Assembly (NCBI GenBank): GCA_964504985.1
Contig: CAZDFU010000005.1
Location: 1 to 46,417 of the forward strand
Length of the DNA stretch: 46,417 nt
Direction: 5' to 3'
From: an uncultured Gammaproteobacteria bacterium
GTDB lineage: Bacteria; Patescibacteriota; Microgenomatia; Daviesbacterales; UBA10151
Part shown: positions 1,904-9,089 of the stretch, in pieces
Position numbering within the stretch: the first letter of the stretch is position 1
How the letters are laid out: each line of letters opens with the position of its first letter
Translations under genes and position numbers: made by a program
The notes under the pieces: model-generated
Database searches by the model: none
Seen by the model: the letters and a program-made list of their open reading frames with translations, nothing else
What the model was told of the DNA's origin: nothing

Positions 1904-2983
1904 CTATCCAAGAGACTGCTTATTGATTACCTCAGCTTCTATAAAATTATCCAGTTCCCCATCCAATACTGCATCTGTGTCTGAAGTTTCAATATTGGTT
2001 CTTAAGTCTTTGACCATATGATAAGGATGTAAAACATATGATCTGATCTGAGTACCCCAGGAAGCCTGGGTGGTTGTTTTTAGCCCCTGAGTTTGGACTT
2101 TTTCCTGTTCTTCTTTTAGTGCCCAGAGTTTAGCTCTTAACATTTTTAAAGCATTTTCCCTGTTTTGAAGTTGAGACCGCTCTGTTTGGCAGGTAACTAC
2201 AATACCAGATGGGATATGTTTAAGTCTTACTGCTGTTGAAACTTTATTAACATTTTGTCCTCCTGCCCCACCAGACCTGAAGGCAGAAAACTCCAAATCT
2301 GAATCATTTATTTCAACTTCAGTTGGATTATCAATAACCGGTAAAACTTCAACCAGGGCAAAAGATGTTTGACGCAATTTATCAGCATTAAAAGGTGATT
2401 GTCTGACTAGCCTATGAGTGCCTGCCTCCCCTTTTAAGTGGCCATAAGAAAGCGGGGCATGAATAATCATGGAAACTTCTTTAATCCCAGCTTCTTCCCC
2501 AGGGGATTCATTAGTCAGCTCAAAACTCCAGCCTTTTTTTTCAAAATATCTTTGATACATTCTAACAAGCATTGAAGCCCAGTCCATAGCTTCCACTCCC
2601 CCAGCTCCTGAGTGAACAGAAACAATGGCATCTGAGTTATCATGCGGGCCAGATAAAAAGGTTCTCAGTTCAAATTCTTTTAAAAGCTTTTCAATCTCTT
2701 TAGTTTCTACTTGTAAATCAGCAAGCATTGATTCATCTGTTGCCAGTTCTAAACTATCATTTATTCTTTGCTCCAAGCTTTCCAAAGTTTGAACAGCTTT
2801 TTGTTTATCTGATAAATCCTGAGAGATTTTTCTGGCCTGATCAGTATCATTCCAAAATCCTTCTTTCATGGTTTGAGCCTCAAGTTCCCTGATTTCTATT
2901 CTTAATTTATCCTGATCAATTTGAGCTGAAATTTGTCCAAATCTATCTTTTAGTTCTTTAAGTTTTTTCTGCAATTCTTCCAT
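1904..2983 (-). CDS. prfB: Peptide chain release factor 2, single uninterrupted frame
   Basis: SPF stop-recognition tripeptide (RLVRQSPF), GGQ motif ([11 protein letters not shown]), [20 protein letters not shown]. No internal CTT-TGA frameshift site. Confidence 0.97.
2944..2983. repeat. Direct repeat copy A (functional prfB 5' end)
   Basis: 34/40 identical to 3684-3723, with a perfect 20-bp core tttttctgcaattcttccat (2964-2983 = 3704-3723); offset 740 bp. Confidence 0.9.
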
Positions 2984-2989
2984 AAGTAA

Positions 2990-3018
2990 ATTATAATCTA
3001 CTTGACTACTACATACAA
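2990..3018 (-). promoter_or_regulatory. Sigma70-type promoter for leaderless prfB
   Basis: Minus strand TTGTAT (3018-3013), 17 bp, TATAAT (2995-2990), 6 nt, ATG (2983). Confidence 0.7.
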
Positions 3019-3040
3019 CTTATATACAATGTTTGTATAT
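3002..3040 (+). promoter_or_regulatory. TA operon promoter with overlapping palindromic operator
   Basis: TTGACT (3002-3007), 17 bp, TACAAT (3025-3030). Inverted repeat atatacaa-tgt-ttgtatat (3022-3040) covers the -10 and start codon; an extra half-site atacaa lies at 3013-3018. Confidence 0.75.
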
Positions 3041-3290
3041 GCAAACACAGACATTTAACATAGCTTTACCTAAAGATTTGGTTAAAAAGATAGATCAGGT
3101 AGCTAAAAAGGAATATAAAAACAGAAGTGAATTAATCCGTGAAGCTCTGAGGATTTACTTGCAAAATATGCAAGAATGGGAAGATATTTTTGTGTATGGA
3201 AAGAAAATAGGTAAAAAGATGGGTATTCAGAGTGAGGAAGATGTTAATAAAATAGTTTATGAATTCAGGCACGGTAAAAAGCAGCCTTAA
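3039..3290 (+). CDS. CopG/ribbon-helix-helix antitoxin
   Basis: TFNIALPKDLVKKIDQVAKKEYKNRSELIREALR is a beta-helix-helix RHH pattern. ATG 3039 is preferred over TTG 3033 because it lies downstream of the -10 box. Overlaps the PIN gene. Confidence 0.88.
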   Translation: MQTQTFNIALPKDLVKKIDQVAKKEYKNRSELIREALRIYLQNMQEWEDIFVYGKKIGKKMGIQSEEDVNKIVYEFRHGKKQP

Positions 3291-3693
3291 AGTTGTTTTG
3301 GACACTAATATTTTTATATCAGCATTAGTTTTTGGAGGCAAACCTGAGGAAATTTACAGATTGGTTTTAACAAAAAAACTTACTGCCTATATATCCCCTA
3401 TTATTCTTGCTGAAATAATAGAGATTTTGACTAAAAGATTTAACTTTAACCAAATTAGGTTAAGACAAATTGAAAGAAAAATTAGAAAAAGTTTTATGAT
3501 TGTTAATCCTACAAGAGATATAAACGTAATAAGAGATCCAGATGATGATAGAATCCTAGAGGCAGCAATAGAGGGGAATTGTGATTATATTGTAACAGGA
3601 GACAAAGATCTTCTTGATCTTAAAAAGTATAAAAAAATCAAGATATTAACCTCAGAACAATTTCTGTCTGAAATATCTCCTTTTATATTTTAA
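3259..3693 (+). CDS. PIN-domain (VapC-like, TIGR00305-type) toxin
   Basis: VVLDTNIFISAL, EIIE, RDPDDDRILEAA, DYIVTGDKDLL: the acidic PIN active-site pattern. Start codon uncertain. Confidence 0.9.
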   Translation: MNSGTVKSSLKVVLDTNIFISALVFGGKPEEIYRLVLTKKLTAYISPIILAEIIEILTKRFNFNQIRLRQIERKIRKSFMIVNPTRDINVIRDPDDDRILEAAIEGNCDYIVTGDKDLLDLKKYKKIKILTSEQFLSEISPFIF

Positions 3694-3723
3694 TTCTCTC
3701 AACTTTTTCTGCAATTCTTCCAT
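3652..3723 (-). pseudogene. Orphaned prfB 5' fragment (repeat copy B), 23-codon mini-ORF antisense to the toxin end
   Basis: Translates [23 protein letters not shown], versus prf[17 protein letters not shown]. Confidence 0.7.
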
Positions 3724-3729
3724 GAAGGA

Positions 3730-3758
3730 ATAATATTCTCTTTCTTGTAAAGATACAA
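3730..3758 (-). promoter_or_regulatory. Second prfB-type promoter in front of the orphaned fragment
   Basis: Minus strand TTGTAT (3758-3753), 17 bp, TATTAT (3735-3730), 6 nt, ATG (3723); same geometry and same 740-bp offset as the prfB promoter. Confidence 0.6.
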
Positions 3759-3780
3759 AATATCCAATGTGCAGCTACAA

Positions 3781-3799
3781 TTCCACCTCCGAGGTGGAA
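3781..3799. repeat. Perfect GC-rich palindrome (REP-like)
   Basis: ttccacctc-c-gaggtggaa, 9-bp arms with a 1-nt centre; outer tgtgc (3768-3772) / gcaca (3800-3804). Confidence 0.65.
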
Positions 3800-3847
3800 G
3801 CACAAATCATTTTCCACAGTCTGAATAAAGCAAAGCGAACTTTGAAG

Positions 3848-3877
3848 TTGCAATCGAGCCTATAGTTTTGATATAAT
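3848..3877 (+). promoter_or_regulatory. Promoter for the leaderless 438-aa ORF
   Basis: TTGCAA (3848-3853), 18 bp, TGnTATAAT (3869-3877), 7 nt, ATG 3885. Confidence 0.7.
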
Positions 3878-3884
3878 TTGCTGT

Positions 3885-5201
3885 ATGAATTCACCTGATT
3901 TTGCCTTAGATAAATGGGGATACGCACCAACTGATGTAAATTCTTTAATGAGCAGAGTTTCTTCAGATGACTTAGATTTAAAAGAAGAATTAGAGATTAC
4001 TTTGCAAGCGGGCGGAGGTAAAGCATTTGGTTTAAAGATTTGCGAACTTGTAGCTTCTAATTTCTTCCATTTACCTCATAGAATGATAGTTCCAAAGTGG
4101 GATGTTTTAAAAGATATTAGATTAATAGAGCATAATTTCGGTAGTGTGCTGCGTAGTTCGGCTCCGCTAGAGGATTGGTTGAATAGCGATAGTGGGGTTT
4201 TGCCAAGTTTTACACATGATTTACTTGATATAGCGAAATTTAATTGGTTAAAAAGGGAGAATGCTCTACCTGATGTTCCTTATATAAAACAAGAGCATAG
4301 AGAAGGATTAGGTTTAGTTTTAGATGTAGGCTACTCACATTTAGAAAGGAAAATTTTGATGAGAATCGCAGCTGGTAATGAGCGGTTTCCTGACGGTTTG
4401 CCATCTACTAGACAACATGGTATTTTTACTTCTGCAACTAATGACACAGAAGCAAGTGCAGGAGTATGGGATGCAGAAACAGGTGAACCTGTATTGCCTA
4501 CACGAAATTTTGGACATAGATCTCTTAATAAAGAGAATGCTGTGTATTACAACATACTAGCAAGACCTTTATTAAAAGCCCTAAGAAAAACGGGTATAGA
4601 TTTTGGTGTTCAAATGGAAATAATTGAACATCCAGATCAAGGAAGTGTTTTGAATATAGTTCAAATTCGGCCTACACCAGCAAGGGTTTGCAGACCTATT
4701 TTTGATTCTAAATCTCCATTTCAACAGGAGAAAGAAAAAATAATTGCCAGATCAGCAATTGTAAATGGTGTATTTGATATTACAGGTGAAGTACTCTTTT
4801 TTGGAAATGATGGAATTAAAAATAATTATGAGTCACGAAGATGGGGTAAGGAGCGATTGATGGAAGGTAAGATAGGGATTTATGATGAGACTACAGGTAA
4901 GGATTATGCTTGTAACTTACAATATAGTATGGCTGCAGAAGTTTATTATGGAGGATATTTGGCTGGGTGTGATGCGCAATTAACACCAGTGGCAATACGA
5001 CCCAATACACATCATGGTAGCATGTCAAATCCTCCACATCTTGAGGAGGTTTACCAACTTTTGGATCAAAACTGTGGCATGGTTTCTCTAAGGTCAAGCG
5101 AGATAGATAAGATTCAAGCTTTAGCTAAACAAAGCGATAAACCTCTTAAGCTAAGGATAGTTTCTGATGGTTTAATTGCTCAAGTACGAACTATTAAATA
5201 A
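3885..5201 (+). CDS. Hypothetical protein, divergent PEP-synthase/PPDK N-terminal (ATP-grasp)-like
   Basis: 438 aa. GGKAFGL, VLRSSAPLED and NIVQIRP occur in the order of the PPDK_N motifs GGKxxxL, VRSSAxxED and ilQxRP. Family call by eye only. Confidence 0.5.
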   Translation: MNSPDFALDKWGYAPTDVNSLMSRVSSDDLDLKEELEITLQAGGGKAFGLKICELVASNFFHLPHRMIVPKWDVLKDIRLIEHNFGSVLRSSAPLEDWLNSDSGVLPSFTHDLLDIAKFNWLKRENALPDVPYIKQEHREGLGLVLDVGYSHLERKILMRIAAGNERFPDGLPSTRQHGIFTSATNDTEASAGVWDAETGEPVLPTRNFGHRSLNKENAVYYNILARPLLKALRKTGIDFGVQMEIIEHPDQGSVLNIVQIRPTPARVCRPIFDSKSPFQQEKEKIIARSAIVNGVFDITGEVLFFGNDGIKNNYESRRWGKERLMEGKIGIYDETTGKDYACNLQYSMAAEVYYGGYLAGCDAQLTPVAIRPNTHHGSMSNPPHLEEVYQLLDQNCGMVSLRSSEIDKIQALAKQSDKPLKLRIVSDGLIAQVRTIK

Positions 5202-5208
5202 GTAATTA

Positions 5209-5217
5209 TGGTAGAAT
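5209..5217 (+). promoter_or_regulatory. Extended -10 promoter for leaderless tsaB
   Basis: TGgTAGAAT (5209-5217), 6 nt, ATG 5224. Confidence 0.6.
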
Positions 5218-5223
5218 TTTTCC

Positions 5224-5526
5224 ATGATTTTATATATTGATACTAAAGATCAAAAAGTTATCAGGGTTTCACTTAAAGACAAGGGGGAAGTGGTCTGCAG
5301 TTTAACTGAAGAGAATGAATATGGCTCACAGGTATTGTTGCCACTTATTAAAAAGATACTAGATGCTAGTAAGCTAGATTTTAGTTCTTTGAAAGGTATA
5401 GAAGTAGAAACAGGGCGGGGTTCTTTTACAGGACTAAGAGTTGGAGTATCTGTTGCGAATGCTTTGGGGTATTCATTAGGGATACCAGTAAATGGAAAAA
5501 GCATAGAAACTGAATTAAACTACTAG
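5224..5526 (+). CDS. tsaB: Short TsaB (t6A biosynthesis) family protein
   Basis: ILYIDT start, SQVLLPLIKKIL, GSFTGLRVGVSVANALGYSLGIPV. Only 100 aa, corresponding to the N-terminal half. Confidence 0.85.
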   Translation: MILYIDTKDQKVIRVSLKDKGEVVCSLTEENEYGSQVLLPLIKKILDASKLDFSSLKGIEVETGRGSFTGLRVGVSVANALGYSLGIPVNGKSIETELNY

Positions 5527-5544
5527 GATAAGAAGATAAGAGTA
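5524..5544. repeat. Left inverted-repeat arm of the four-helix-bundle element
   Basis: taggataaga (5524-5533) complements tcttatccta (5948-5957); agataagagt (5534-5543) complements actcttatct (5931-5940). Confidence 0.8.
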
Positions 5545-5545
5545 T

Positions 5546-5932
5546 CTAGTGATGAGTCTGTTTTCGTCGCAGAGTATTAAGCGTAGCAATTAGCATTTTA
5601 ATAGTTTCTTCATTTAAAAGTTGTATTTGTTTTATATCATTAGAAAATTTTGGATAAGTTTCTGCTAATAGTTCAAGCCAATATTCTGTTTCCCTTGCTG
5701 AACCTAGAGCCATCTGAATAAATCTAGGATATTCTTTACCTAGATATTTTCCATATCCTTCAGCTATACACGCTCCTATTGAGAAACTTGATCTTAAAAC
5801 TTGATCAGTTATTATCCAAACAATTCTTTCATTAGGTAGAATTCTTGTTAATTGAATGATTTTTCTACTTACTTCTTTTGATGTTTGCCAAAATTTTAAT
5901 TCTTTATAAGAATTTAAACTTTGACTAATCAC
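5546..5932 (-). CDS. Four helix bundle protein (23S rRNA IVP / TIGR02436-like)
   Basis: SYKELKFWQ...DQVLRSSFSIGACIAEGYG...RFIQMALGSARETEYWL...IKML matches the family pattern. GTG start. Confidence 0.9.
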   Translation of the reverse strand: MISQSLNSYKELKFWQTSKEVSRKIIQLTRILPNERIVWIITDQVLRSSFSIGACIAEGYGKYLGKEYPRFIQMALGSARETEYWLELLAETYPKFSNDIKQIQLLNEETIKMLIATLNTLRRKQTHH

Positions 5933-5957
5933 TCTTATCTTAATTACTCTTATCCTA
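5931..5957. repeat. Right inverted-repeat arm of the four-helix-bundle element
   Basis: actcttatct-taatt-actcttatccta: two tandem units, each complementary to the left arm. Confidence 0.8.
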
Positions 5958-5960
5958 AAA

Positions 5961-5969
5961 TGCTATACT
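5961..5969 (+). promoter_or_regulatory. Extended -10 promoter for the leaderless CAP-rml operon
   Basis: TGcTATACT (5961-5969), 6 nt, ATG 5976. Confidence 0.65.
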
Positions 5970-5975
5970 TTTAAT

Positions 5976-6845
5976 ATGGCTTTTCATAAATGGTTCATAC
6001 CTCACCGTGATACTCATAAAAAAGCACACCTAATATCCTGGGAGGCTTTGCTTATTTATATACTCTTTTTTATCTTTCTTCAGGTTGGATTTTCCATCAT
6101 AAGTTATACCAAGCCTGGAGTTTTAGGAATCTCCTCAAGTGTTGATCAAAAAACTCTTATTGAGCTAACAAATAAAGAAAGAATAGAAAAGGGTTTGCCT
6201 GCTTTGGTAGAAAATGAAGCCTTAAATAAGGCAGCTCAACTGAAGGCAGAAAATATGTTATCAGAAAATTACTGGGCGCATTTTGCCCCCTCAGGCAAAA
6301 CTCCTTGGGATTTTATAATAGGAGCAGGTTATAAATTTACTTTTGCCGGCGAAAATTTAGCCAAAAACTTTTATTCATCAGATGAAGTGGTAAAAGCTTG
6401 GATGGCCTCACCAACTCACCGGGATAATTTATTAAATTCAAAATATAAAGATATAGGGATTGCTGTTTTAGAAGGGGTTTTAAACGGACAGAAAACAACT
6501 TTAGTAGTGCAGGAATTTGGCACAACTCAAATAGGAGTACAAGAGGCTTCCATTGATGTTTCTGGCAAAAAAGTTACAGTTTCCCAGGAAGAATTTGAAA
6601 AACCATTATTTTTAGGAGTAGCTGAAATTAAACCAAATATAAAACCTATGCTTGATCCATATATAGTATTTAAAACAGCAGGATTTAGTATAATTTTAAT
6701 AATTGCAGTTCTTTTAATTATTGATATTTGGGTTTTAAAAAGAAGAGGGGTATTTAGGATCTCTTCACATAATATAGCTCATATGGCTTTACTTTCTTTG
6801 GCAGCAGGTAGTCTATATATGGTCAGTCCAGGAGCAATATTATGA
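5976..6845 (+). CDS. Membrane-anchored CAP/SCP-domain protein
   Basis: LTNKER, LNKAAQLKAENML...YWAH, GENLA, WMASPTHRDNLL...DIGI; N- and C-terminal hydrophobic segments. Confidence 0.92.
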   Translation: MAFHKWFIPHRDTHKKAHLISWEALLIYILFFIFLQVGFSIISYTKPGVLGISSSVDQKTLIELTNKERIEKGLPALVENEALNKAAQLKAENMLSENYWAHFAPSGKTPWDFIIGAGYKFTFAGENLAKNFYSSDEVVKAWMASPTHRDNLLNSKYKDIGIAVLEGVLNGQKTTLVVQEFGTTQIGVQEASIDVSGKKVTVSQEEFEKPLFLGVAEIKPNIKPMLDPYIVFKTAGFSIILIIAVLLIIDIWVLKRRGVFRISSHNIAHMALLSLAAGSLYMVSPGAIL

Positions 6846-7006
6846 TTATTCCTTTAAAAATTTTATCTATTGGTATTTTTATATATTTAATTTGGGCTCT
6901 GTTCCATCATAAAAAAGACAAAAGTTTGACATTGGCTATTTTAGTAGAGTATCTTCTAACTGCAACTTTAGCAATAATTCTTTTGATGGGAGTTTTAATA
7001 CAATGA
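6842..7006 (+). CDS. Small two-helix membrane protein (54 aa, below the ORF-track cutoff)
   Basis: MIIPLKILSIGIFIYLIWALFHHKKDKSLTLAILVEYLLTATLAIILLMGVLIQ*. It fills the gap exactly, with ATGA overlaps at both ends. Confidence 0.8.
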   Translation: MIIPLKILSIGIFIYLIWALFHHKKDKSLTLAILVEYLLTATLAIILLMGVLIQ

Positions 7007-8085
7007 AGGCTGTAATACCAACAGGAGGACGTGGTACCAGAATGCGCCCTTTAACATTTTCTCAAAATAAACATTTTATTCCTGTTGCCAATAAACCCTT
7101 GATCTTTTATCCAATTGAAACAGTGGCTAATGCAGGTATTAAAGAAATTGCCTTAACTTATAATACAGGTGGATTGGAAGAAGTAAAAAATATGCTGGGG
7201 GATGGTTCCAGATGGGGAGTAAAGTTTAGTTATGTATTACAAGAGCAGCCAAAAGGTTTGGCAAATATTTTCCAGGTTTGTGAAGAATTTGTCCGCGGTG
7301 AGCCTTTTGTGATGCATCTGGGTGATAATATTTTTGTTGACGGGATTTCAGATTTAGTTGTTCACTTTGATAAAGAAAAACCAGATGGGTTGGTTGCTAT
7401 GGTTCATCACAAAGAAAACACCAGGCTTGGGGTGCCATATTTTGATGATAATGGCCACTTGGTAAAATATGTGGAAAAGCCTGAGAACCCTCCTCATGAT
7501 TTTGCTATACCTGGGATATATTTTTTCTCCCCCTTGGTTTTTGAATGTTTTAGGGGTAAGGATGCAATTCAACCATCAGCAAGAGGGGAGTATGAGATAT
7601 CAGCCCCGTATCAGTGGTTAATTGATAAAGGAAAAAGAGTGGATGTTTTAGAATACAAAGGAAAATGGTTAGATCCTGGGAAAATTGATGACTGGCTTTA
7701 TGCAAACGAGTATCTTTTGGAAAATAATTTTGAGCAGTTGGTAGAAAGTAAAATAGATGAAAGCTCGTCAGTTGAGGGTAAAATTAAATTAGGTAAAGAT
7801 TCTGAAATTAGGAATTCTAAAATAAAAGGTCCAGTGGTAATTGGTGATAAAGTAATAATTGAAGACTCAGAAATTGGCCCGTTTGTTTCTATAGCAGATG
7901 GGTGTGAAGTTATAAATTCAGAAATAAAAAGATCTATCCTGATGGGAGGCGTCAGGGTTAGCGGGGTCTTGGAGCACCCTATGGAGGATAGTTTAATCGG
8001 CACTGATACAGAAGTTGTAGGCAGTGACGGTAAAGGAGCAGCTACAAAATTGTTTGTTGGGGAAAAGTGCAAAATACAAATATGA
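7003..8085 (+). CDS. rmlA: Glucose-1-phosphate thymidylyltransferase, long form with C-terminal left-handed beta-helix
   Basis: GGRGTRMRPLT...KHFIPVANKPLI, QEQPKGLA, LGDNIF, EKP, SARGEYEI, WLDPG; hexapeptide-like C-terminus; first gene of rmlABCD. Confidence 0.9.
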   Translation: MKAVIPTGGRGTRMRPLTFSQNKHFIPVANKPLIFYPIETVANAGIKEIALTYNTGGLEEVKNMLGDGSRWGVKFSYVLQEQPKGLANIFQVCEEFVRGEPFVMHLGDNIFVDGISDLVVHFDKEKPDGLVAMVHHKENTRLGVPYFDDNGHLVKYVEKPENPPHDFAIPGIYFFSPLVFECFRGKDAIQPSARGEYEISAPYQWLIDKGKRVDVLEYKGKWLDPGKIDDWLYANEYLLENNFEQLVESKIDESSSVEGKIKLGKDSEIRNSKIKGPVVIGDKVIIEDSEIGPFVSIADGCEVINSEIKRSILMGGVRVSGVLEHPMEDSLIGTDTEVVGSDGKGAATKLFVGEKCKIQI

Positions 8086-9089
8086 GATTACTGGTGACTG
8101 GCGGGGCAGGTTTTATAGGTTCAAATTTTATCCATTACTGGATAAAATTTCATCCTGAAGATCAAATTATTAATCTTGATGTTTTAACTTATGCAGGTCA
8201 TATAGAATCCTTAAAAGATTTAGAAGGAAATCTTAATTACCAATTTATAAAAGGAGATATTGCCAACCCTGAGGATGTAAAAAAAGCCATGAGTGGAGTG
8301 GACGTTGTCGTTCATTTTGCAGCTGAATCCCATGTAGACCGTTCAATAATAGATCCATTAGTTTTTGTTAAAACAAATGTTTTGGGGACTGCGGTTTTGT
8401 TACATGAAGCGGTTGAGGTAAAAGTTAAGCGTTTCCATCATGTTTCAACAGATGAAGTATATGGAAGCTTAGGTCTGGATGATTCTTCTTTTACACCTGA
8501 CACTCCATATCACCCAAGAACTCCATATGCTGCTTCAAAAGCAGGAGCAGATCATTTAGTAAGAGCTTTTTTTGAAACATATGGACTGCCAATAACTATT
8601 TCAAACTGTGCTAATAATTTTGGACCATTTCATGACCCTGAAAAATTAATCCCGAGGTTTATTACAAATTTAATAGAGGGTCAAAAAGTGCCCTTAATGG
8701 GTAAAGGAGAAAATATCCGGGAATGGTTATATGTGGATGATCACTCAAAAGGAATAGAAGTTATTTTAGAAAAAGGACAGGTAGGAAAAACTTATTTAAT
8801 TCAAGGGGAGGAAAAAACCAACTTAGAAGTAACAAAAAAGATTTTAGAAGTGTTAAATTTAGATGAATCATATATAGAATATGTGAAAGACAGGCTGGGG
8901 CATGATTTCCGGTATGCCAATGATGGGACTGAGCTTAAAAAATTAGGCTGGGTGGCTGATCATAATTTTGATGAATGGCTGGAAAAAACCATTAATTGGT
9001 TTAAAGAAAATGAGTGGTGGTGGAAACCATTAAAGCAAGGCAGGCCTAATGTTGATAGGAGCGCTCAAAAAGGATATAACAATGGATGA
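8082..9089 (+). CDS. rmlB: dTDP-glucose 4,6-dehydratase
   Basis: TGGAGFIGSNF, HFAAESHVDRSI, STDEVYG, PYAASKA, DRLGHDFRY. ATG 8082 overlaps the rmlA stop. Confidence 0.96.
   Translation: MRLLVTGGAGFIGSNFIHYWIKFHPEDQIINLDVLTYAGHIESLKDLEGNLNYQFIKGDIANPEDVKKAMSGVDVVVHFAAESHVDRSIIDPLVFVKTNVLGTAVLLHEAVEVKVKRFHHVSTDEVYGSLGLDDSSFTPDTPYHPRTPYAASKAGADHLVRAFFETYGLPITISNCANNFGPFHDPEKLIPRFITNLIEGQKVPLMGKGENIREWLYVDDHSKGIEVILEKGQVGKTYLIQGEEKTNLEVTKKILEVLNLDESYIEYVKDRLGHDFRYANDGTELKKLGWVADHNFDEWLEKTINWFKENEWWWKPLKQGRPNVDRSAQKGYNNG

Follow-up and report, generated by a model that had tools for sequence, protein, structure and literature searches.

How did a small toxin-antitoxin operon come to lie between two copies of the beginning of prfB, the gene encoding release factor 2 (RF2)? 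The question is raised by a contig of 46,417 nt (CAZDFU010000005.1, assembly GCA_964504985.1; the whole stretch is called the window below), which RF2 relatives place in Candidatus Daviesbacteria (Microgenomates, candidate phyla radiation (CPR)). Exact look-up of the RF2 and PIN proteins of the window in public assemblies returned no record, and related loci are given here as L numbers. In our judgment, the arrangement is probably the scar of a one-sided homologous plus illegitimate recombination in an insertion hotspot, and not a new kind of mobile element.

The prfB gene (1904-2983, minus strand, 359 amino acids (aa)) is a single intact open reading frame (ORF) carrying the Pfam PCRF and RF-1 domains. 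Being uninterrupted, it is without the programmed +1 frameshift site that many other bacteria have in this gene. A repeat search showed that its 5' end belongs to the longest direct repeat family in the window, with 56 nt at 2944-2999 repeated at 3684-3739 (79% identity) at a start-to-start distance of exactly 740 nt. Copy A (2944-2999, minus strand; repeat search and alignment) holds the working prfB start, with the ATG read as CAT at 2981-2983 and a -10 box, TATAAT, at 2990-2995; the box lies 6 nt upstream of the ATG and the gene is probably leaderless. Copy B (3668-3739, minus strand; repeat search, shuffling, profile and three-way alignment) is an orphaned start, in which a weakened -10 box, TATTAT (3730-3735), precedes an ATG (CAT at 3721-3723) and codons 1 to ~19 with a 2-nt deletion. 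Read as an ORF, copy B yields only 23 aa.

Over the first 40 nt from the ATG, the two copies are identical at 34 of 40 positions and share a perfect 20-nt core, ATGGAAGAATTGCAGAAAAA. The similarity of the coding parts (+1 to +40) reached a score found in none of 5000 shuffles, and copy B was matched (E = 2.8e-6) by a prfB 5' profile built from 43 Daviesbacteria prfB starts. These results confirm the claim of an earlier sequence-only reading of this DNA that the prfB 5' end occurs twice, 740 nt apart, with this identity and this core. Its account of the substitutions in the first 12 codons was also accurate: AAA/AAG, CTT/TTG and CTA/TTA are synonymous and AAA/AGA changes K to R (K9R). Codons 13 and 14 differ non-synonymously (GAT/TAT, D13Y, and AGA/AAA, R14K). 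That reading had put the length of the repeat at about 13 codons; these are present, but copy B runs on to ~codon 19 with its 2-nt deletion and ends at the heptanucleotide CTGAAAT (3668-3674). Identity is ~69% from -1 to -17. Upstream of about -17 the similarity is not significant (p about 0.03-0.07), and the homology falls off at the point where copy A meets the -35 box of the toxin-antitoxin module. The ORF list and Pfam bear out that an antitoxin gene of the RHH type and a PIN_3 toxin gene are the only genes between the copies, and that the stop codon of the toxin (TAA, 3691-3693) lies inside copy B. On its minus strand the relic (3683-3735) combines a plausible -10 box, TATTAT, with an ATG and a 23-codon ORF running antisense into the 3' end of the toxin gene, and an antisense transcript may be made from it.

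The module between the copies was then compared with its homologs. Around 80 RHH-PIN loci were inspected, 67 of them from a metagenome scan with the antitoxin, the others (L151-L162) from a toxin protein search with context look-ups. The antitoxin of the window (3039-3290, plus strand, 83 aa) is a CopG-type RHH protein (RHH_1, E = 9.7e-10, 38.5 bits against a cutoff of 20.5) that is 72% identical to the antitoxin of L029. Its start was taken at ATG 3039, which gives the conserved beginning MQTQTF (a mechanical ORF list starts at TTG 3033). The co-oriented toxin gene (3259-3693, plus strand, 144 aa; PIN_3, E = 1e-23, 84.8 bits against a cutoff of 27) follows the antitoxin gene with a 32-nt overlap, and the toxin residues D15, E52, D95/D96, D115 and D117 are invariant with respect to L029. 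The GC content of the module is 29-31%, compared with 36-40% in the flanks. Ahead of the antitoxin lies the promoter/operator (3001-3038, plus strand; promoter scan and profile), with a -35 box TTGACT (3002-3007) placed 5-6 nt from the prfB -10 box, a -10 box TACAAT (3025-3030) and repeated ATACAA/TTGTAT half-sites that overlap both boxes. Promoter and half-sites are conserved in all 67 metagenomic loci, and the module is putatively self-regulated through this palindromic operator. A profile of the toxin-antitoxin promoter matched the copy A side (E = 1.2e-9) and gave no match on the copy B side.

The operator bears on a promoter pattern that the sequence-only reading had treated as part of the repeat. 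TTGTAT-17-TATAAT/TATTAT-6-ATG is indeed found in both copies, but the TTGTAT of copy A is a half-site of the antitoxin operator, because it is conserved in all 67 module loci (67/67). The TATAAT is general as well: it stands 6-9 nt ahead of the prfB ATG in 40 of 42 Daviesbacteria genes (17 of these with a TG extension) and is therefore no special feature of the window prfB. Where the module is flush to prfB (window 2984-3040; L029:5951-6000; L107:4945-4994), the half-site TTGTAT is found 17-18 nt from a TG-less prfB -10 box. Antitoxin binding could affect RF2 transcription, which would perhaps place RF2 under antitoxin control. A link between TG-extended -10 boxes and absence of the module was considered and is weak, as the three module-flush promoters lack the TG but 20 others do too.

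Judged from its sequence, the module appears to be an ordinary member of the type II RHH-PIN (VapBC-like) toxin-antitoxin family. It shares with VapBC-like modules the antitoxin-first order, the overlapping genes, the Pfam matches, the acidic residues of the PIN domain, a putative operator in its own promoter and a patchy, context-independent distribution. What sets the window apart from these modules is the position flush to the prfB -10 box and a toxin tail and stop codon taken from the antisense strand of a prfB relic.

To place the insertion, the surroundings of prfB were compared among relatives. The order tsaB, then divergently prfB, a 148-aa gene and ftsE is kept across 39 Daviesbacteria species. 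In the most compact Daviesbacteria genomes, the start codons of tsaB and prfB are only 36-38 nt apart, and the ancestral distance is 36 nt. Packed into this 36-nt spacer are two -10 boxes, back to back, with 6-7 nt between each box and its own ATG, and because of this -10-to-ATG spacing we infer that prfB and tsaB are leaderless. Across the 39 species the spacer ranges from 36 to 5349 nt, with cargo in the relatives that includes an AbiEii toxin, an asparaginase-like protein, DUF3891, an M10 peptidase and membrane proteins; it is an insertion hotspot for accessory genes. In the window, the other conserved flank of the hotspot is a tsaB-like gene (5224-5526, plus strand, 100 aa), recognized by the Pfam TsaD family, its own promoter TGGTAGAAT, a tsaB 5' profile and synteny in 39 Daviesbacteria loci. 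A gene for a 438-aa hypothetical protein (3885-5201, plus strand), common to the window, L081 and L082, lies between the module and tsaB and is an older accessory insertion. The spacer in front of it (3811-3884, plus strand), which contains its promoter TTGCAA-18-TATAAT (3848-3877; promoter scan), aligns with the L081 spacer up to the motif CAGACTG.

L081 and L082, the closest relatives found, show what the site looks like when empty. In both, the module is missing and a spacer of 67-69 nt separates prfB from the 438-aa gene, behind which tsaB follows; they are empty sites of the kind that the sequence-only reading had proposed to look for. The RF2 of L081 is 83% identical in amino acids over the 240 residues covered by its contig, and the window prfB is nearest to that of L081 over its whole length (79% in nucleotides). 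In L081, CAGACTG directly precedes the prfB -10 box; in the window, an element of ~50 nt lies between CAGACTG and copy B. This element (3755-3810, minus strand; fold, and homology to L038 and L008) consists of a GC-rich hairpin, TTCCACCTCCGAGGTGGAA (3781-3799; -15.3 kcal/mol), followed in prfB orientation by TGTAGCTGCACATTGGATATT. In L038 and L008, two loci without the module, prfB is preceded by an element homologous to the hairpin and TGTAGCTGCAC..GGATATT upstream of copy B (0/3000 shuffles), in the same orientation to prfB. The match ends ~30 nt short of the copy B -10 box.

Since the hairpin upstream of copy B is homologous to native prfB upstream DNA of module-free loci, copy B would be the original start. 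Copy B together with its upstream element thus appears to be the displaced resident prfB start. Upstream of copy A lies the module promoter, at the 5-nt distance from the prfB -10 box that L029 and L107 also show, and the module seems to have arrived together with the start and the -10 box that prfB now uses. This upholds, with the empty loci and the native hairpin at copy B, the earlier proposal that an insertion at the prfB 5' end brought a replacement start and -10 box. Two other readings of the upstream DNA were rejected. The copy B upstream region is not a decayed module promoter left by a tandem duplication of the module, as it shows no match to the promoter profile and marginal pairwise similarity, and carries the native hairpin homology instead. 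L081 is not the product of a precise excision between copies A and B, as it is without the hairpin element of copy B and has a canonical promoter, CTGTTATAAT.

Hairpins of this kind form a family of their own, GC-rich palindromes of the type TTCCACC..GGTGGAA or TTCCCAC..GTGGGAA, often with a GTAGCTA flank. Sites were seen at 3781-3799 of the window, in L006, L007, L008, L020, L032 and L037 (5154-5928), at L107:5677-5695 and at L125:3432-3448. In the 13-kb Daviesbacteria loci, they lie almost only within the kilobase upstream of prfB, and in several module loci just past the toxin. A palindrome of the same family also stands inside the tsaB frame at ~codon 49, apparently as an in-frame insertion, in L008 (5633-5651) and in L081 (2330-2368), whose contig ends within it. 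These hairpins could be elements of the repetitive extragenic palindromic (REP) kind or terminators without a U tract. A REP-type head, GTAGCT, is found in L008, L038 and L120, and the window has GCAGCT. The window hairpin was not repeated elsewhere in the 46 kb, no Y1 transposase was found among the window ORFs of at least 100 aa, and an Rfam scan of 2800-4000 gave no RNA family.

The junction between the toxin gene and copy B was resolved by a three-way alignment of the window, copy A and the toxin 3' end of L161, a module of the same clade as that of the window. The window tracks the L161 toxin 3' end through ...TTTCT(G/A)TCTGAAATA up to CTGAAAT(A), and past CTGAAAT it tracks the antisense of prfB (copy A) from codon 19 to codon 1, with the 2-nt deletion. 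The 7-nt CTGAAAT (3668-3674) is common to the window, to the L161 toxin 3' end and to the antisense of prfB codons 18-20, where toxin-derived DNA meets the displaced prfB start; it looks like the signature of an illegitimate join at a microhomology. Toxins of this family end 2-5 aa past an FL motif. In the window, the antisense strand of the prfB relic encodes the end of the toxin (about SPFIF and the stop), and the tail is 6 codons longer than that of L161; the longer tail with its relic-derived stop would be due to the illegitimate join at CTGAAAT.

The recombination scar that we favor would have formed as follows. The resident order would have been prfB, its -10 box, the hairpin element, the 438-aa gene and tsaB. 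A related lineage, in which the module was already flush against prfB, would have donated DNA that recombined in, on one side by homologous exchange within the conserved first codons of prfB and on the other by an illegitimate join of the toxin 3' end to the resident prfB at ~codon 19 through CTGAAAT. Such an event would duplicate codons 1 to ~19 and the -10 box and keep the resident downstream genes. The working prfB start and -10 box would now abut the -35 box of the module, and the old start, its promoter and the hairpin would be left downstream of the toxin as a decaying relic that supplies the last codons and the stop of the toxin gene. Campbell-type integration of a circularized fragment by a single crossover would give the same product and is indistinguishable from the linear route here; the circle plus crossover imagined in the sequence-only reading is no better supported than a linear one-sided recombination. 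We infer the direction and mechanism of the recombination, the donor lineage and leaderless transcription. Selection probably explains the survival of such scars, because in a spacer with two overlapping promoters an insertion would be tolerated only with the promoter region duplicated.

Homology-facilitated illegitimate recombination, a process described in transformable bacteria and proposed for orphan gene arrays (PMC5361080), involves a homologous anchor and a microhomology. At this locus the anchor would be the 34/40 match with its 20-nt core at the prfB start, and the microhomology would be CTGAAAT. Loci resembling each partner were also found: L081 and L082 are recipient-like, and L029 and L107 (flush to prfB) and L161 (same clade, flush to tsaB) are donor-like. 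Recombinase and transposase families were found neither in any window ORF of at least 100 aa, in line with the earlier remark that the window has no recombinase, nor in the sampled hotspot cargo of relatives.

Several observations speak against this scenario. No donor lineage with a module of the window clade flush against prfB was found, and the L161 contig ends inside the antitoxin. Sliding identity detected no mosaic boundary in prfB, so the imported prfB segment would be short or its donor unsampled; import of a mosaic prfB from a donor of the L029/L107 type was considered and rejected, as the gene is L081-like throughout. The three non-synonymous changes and the deletion of copy B fit decay after the event but fit an older in-place duplication too. 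Over 40-60 nt, the distances among copy A, copy B and L081 are much alike (6-8 differences each), so that the polarity rests on the upstream element and not on the coding repeat. As to that element, it belongs to a dispersed family and could have been inserted upstream of copy B independently. Finally, seven AT-rich bases of microhomology can arise by chance.

If the prfB fragment were a regular part of the module, it should travel with it. In all loci, the conserved module DNA runs from its own -35 box to the toxin stop, with the pattern ATG-ATACAnnnATTGTATATAnnTTGTATnTnnnGTCAAG conserved on the strand opposite the antitoxin gene (prfB-sense), and the sequence past the toxin stop is unrelated between loci. 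Likewise, L155 and L156 are homologous to the window at the nucleotide level from 3000/3002 to 3663/3665. Most module loci are far from prfB. The nearest relatives of the window module (71-77% over both proteins) adjoin Lon, a radical-SAM gene, LexA or tsaB, and the modules beside prfB in L029, L096, L107 and L120 are only 56-61% identical to it; a neighbor-joining tree of the modules, which carries no support values, was used for this identity gap only. In L161, where the antitoxin is 85% and the toxin 68% identical to those of the window, the toxin ends in ...FLSEIK-stop directly against tsaB. In L029 and L107, the module is flush to the prfB -10 box with the identical 5-nt gap and without any duplication. 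Applied to the window and 150 loci, the prfB 5' profile gave two extra matches, copy B of the window and a relic in L032 beside different cargo, and a prfB fragment was found at no other module locus scanned (L159-L162 included; L151-L158 were not put through the profile). The sequence-only reading had called for a search for other prfB 5' duplications; one was met in L032, but none at the other scanned RHH-PIN loci. The idea that alleles had been swapped between L086 and L120 was dropped, as the flanks are diverged as much as the module (75% in nucleotides throughout). L120 itself (3559-8768) has a 5.1-kb prfB-tsaB spacer that resembles a small toxin-antitoxin island, with the RHH-PIN module, other cargo and two further pairs similar to HicA/HicB and nucleotidyltransferase/HEPN according to our own reading of the ORF translations.

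Scars similar to that of the window recur in the hotspot, on either flank. In L032, the prfB start is duplicated around 1.2 kb of other cargo: the old start, still beside tsaB, is 24/26 identical to the working one, its -10 box has decayed to CATAAT and the duplication ends at codon 5. The stretches concerned are L032:4747-4794 and 5966-6015; the old start retains the whole ancestral 33-nt spacer beside tsaB, and the working prfB is 1.2 kb off, behind the unrelated cargo and a hairpin (5468-5487). L096 is the mirror image, since there the promoter and start of tsaB are duplicated, 22/25 identical and 729 nt apart, around an RHH-PIN module. A relic consisting of the promoter TGGTAAAAT and 8 codons precedes the antitoxin, and at the other end the toxin stop is overlapped by the real tsaB (L096:4899-4938 and 5644-5668). 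In L010 (1629-3443), the gene for a 492-aa membrane protein is joined in frame to the promoter and first 19 codons of tsaB (MILCIDTKDKKLISVSLKK), and a second, complete tsaB with its own promoter follows behind that gene. The duplications thus end at prfB codons ~19 (window) and 5 (L032) and at tsaB codons 8 (L096) and 19 (L010). The scatter of these end points over two genes speaks for illegitimate events that happened repeatedly, with the conserved flanks as anchors, and not for an attachment core that is fixed. The minimal cassette class targeting prfB and carrying a prfB fragment, which the sequence-only reading had put forward, is therefore not borne out: other scanned module loci have no relic, L029 and L107 are flush without duplication, and a fixed core is missing.

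One alternative is that the duplication came first. Slippage or unequal exchange, for instance, would have copied the prfB promoter and first codons in place as a short tandem duplication, and the module would have landed between the copies later. This would need no donor carrying prfB, the changes in copy B (K9R, D13Y, R14K, the 2-nt deletion and TATTAT for TATAAT) look like decay, and in a 36-nt spacer with two promoters an insertion could land safely once a promoter had been duplicated. Yet the module meets the prfB -10 box as it does in L029 and L107, with the same 5-nt gap, which suggests that the combination arrived pre-formed, and a toxin frame fused to the relic at a microhomology is what is expected from one joining event. 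In a variant of this scheme, a larger tandem duplication from prfB to the toxin would have been followed by deletion of the second module; a module-type promoter would then be expected upstream of copy B, where none was detected and the native hairpin is found. In either form, we consider that the duplication is unlikely to have come first.

We give a small chance to a dedicated capture of cassettes at the 36-nt spacer, acting in trans through a recombinase or a hairpin-recognizing Y1 enzyme encoded elsewhere and duplicating the promoter and first codons of the essential gene that it enters. If this were true, its footprints would be the four duplications (window, L032, L096 and L010), the hairpins restricted to the hotspot and the identical 5-nt spacing of modules that are not sisters.

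The new element class itself, a non-autonomous toxin-antitoxin cassette that uses the prfB 5' fragment as attachment site and moves as a 740-bp circle through the 20-nt core with a site-specific recombinase encoded elsewhere, has in our view a slim chance of being correct. It predicts an empty allele in which prfB codon 8 is joined to GAAGGAATAATATT and a circle junction ...TCTCAAC-core-AAGTAAATTATAAT. The perfect core within a 34/40 repeat is what such a cassette would leave, but the same 20 nt are identical in L081 too and may reflect constraint on the mRNA 5' end. Three lineages, with modules that are not mutual closest relatives, have the module flush to prfB at the same 5-nt distance, yet two of these, L029 and L107, have no duplication, and the prfB 5' profile detected no prfB fragment at the other module loci to which it was applied. 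The mirror case of L096, with tsaB-start repeats 729 nt apart around the same kind of module, could be taken as a second cassette; against this, the four duplications end at different codons of two genes without a common core, and the conserved module sequence stops at the -35 box and the toxin stop. The hairpin elements are concentrated in the hotspot, but the window (ORFs of at least 100 aa) and the inspected hotspot cargo encode no recombinase, and the distal junction is a microhomology in the last codons of the toxin and not a repeat boundary. An assembly artefact, in which a loop or strain variants were joined at the shared 20-mer and the copies are not on one molecule, is highly improbable: the contig is metagenome-assembled and a 20-nt core could link paths in a small-k de Bruijn graph, but there are differences between the copies to either side of the core, which ordinary reads would span and resolve, the toxin/relic junction must exist in some molecule whatever the path, the adjacency of prfB and module is seen independently in L029 and L107, and three further assemblies, each of another project, contain duplications of analogous structure.

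How does the recombination scar compare with known systems? Hochhut and Waldor reportedly described in 1999 that the SXT element restores the 5' end and promoter of the gene that it enters, that the gene stays functional and that a short direct repeat flanks the insert. The window insert is similar in that it supplies a replacement 5' end and promoter, and copy A continues into the intact 359-aa ORF. The target is similar as well, as SXT/R391 elements bring foreign DNA into the 5' end of another release-factor gene, prfC (PMC2791158). These elements are ~100 kb long and have their own tyrosine integrase and a fixed attP/attB core, whereas the window insert is 0.7 kb, has no recombinase that could be found, no fixed core and a microhomology at one end, and homologous modules occur without the target fragment.

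A second comparison is with the orphan immunity genes and displaced Rhs and contact-dependent inhibition (CDI) ends, and with the effector-immunity arrays of type VI secretion systems (T6SS). These share with the history proposed for the window a module anchored by homology, an illegitimate join at the far side and a displaced resident piece left as an orphan (PMC5361080; PMC3240628). What is displaced in those arrays is a toxin gene 3' end; in the window it is the 5' end and promoter of an essential housekeeping gene, and the outcome recurs on both flanks of the hotspot. The displacement scar of homology-facilitated illegitimate recombination is, by this analogy, the closest mechanistic parallel that we would name.

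Integrons offer a looser likeness. Many chromosomal integron cassettes are toxin-antitoxin pairs. In the hotspot, too, small toxin-antitoxin or single-gene cargo gathers at one promoter-side site, with hairpins between the units. Unlike in an integron, no intI was found among the window ORFs of at least 100 aa, the cargo has its own promoter, its orientation is not uniform and the sequence past the stop codons is unrelated among loci. The hairpin, moreover, is homologous to native DNA upstream of prfB and absent from most copies of the module.

A search of 5.8 billion proteins gave 29 homologs of the 438-aa protein, the length of some being 680-755 aa; the protein has no Pfam family and no PDB relative, and in L083 the homologous gene adjoins an AbiEii gene. 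On the minus strand at 5546-5932 is a low-GC gene (27-29%) for a protein of the 23S rRNA intervening-sequence family. The remaining window is a glycosylation and polysaccharide cluster, ~36 kb long (7003-43238), with rhamnose-pathway enzymes, glycosyltransferases and PMT_2-type enzymes.

A new class of mobile element is not established by this locus, which probably reflects an ordinary process in an unusual place. With its empty-site relatives, a donor-like relative and a junction resolved to the base, it would serve, for an uncultured lineage, as a well-defined natural case of one-sided homologous plus illegitimate recombination, and gene flow among Daviesbacteria could be traced with the hotspot as a marker. 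Possible functional consequences, as suggested by the sequence, are that prfB would be transcribed from beside an antitoxin operator, that the relic promoter may read antisense into the toxin gene and that the toxin would carry a borrowed tail. For the biology of these organisms, the locus shows how a streamlined CPR genome can add accessory genes between two tightly packed essential genes and lose neither.

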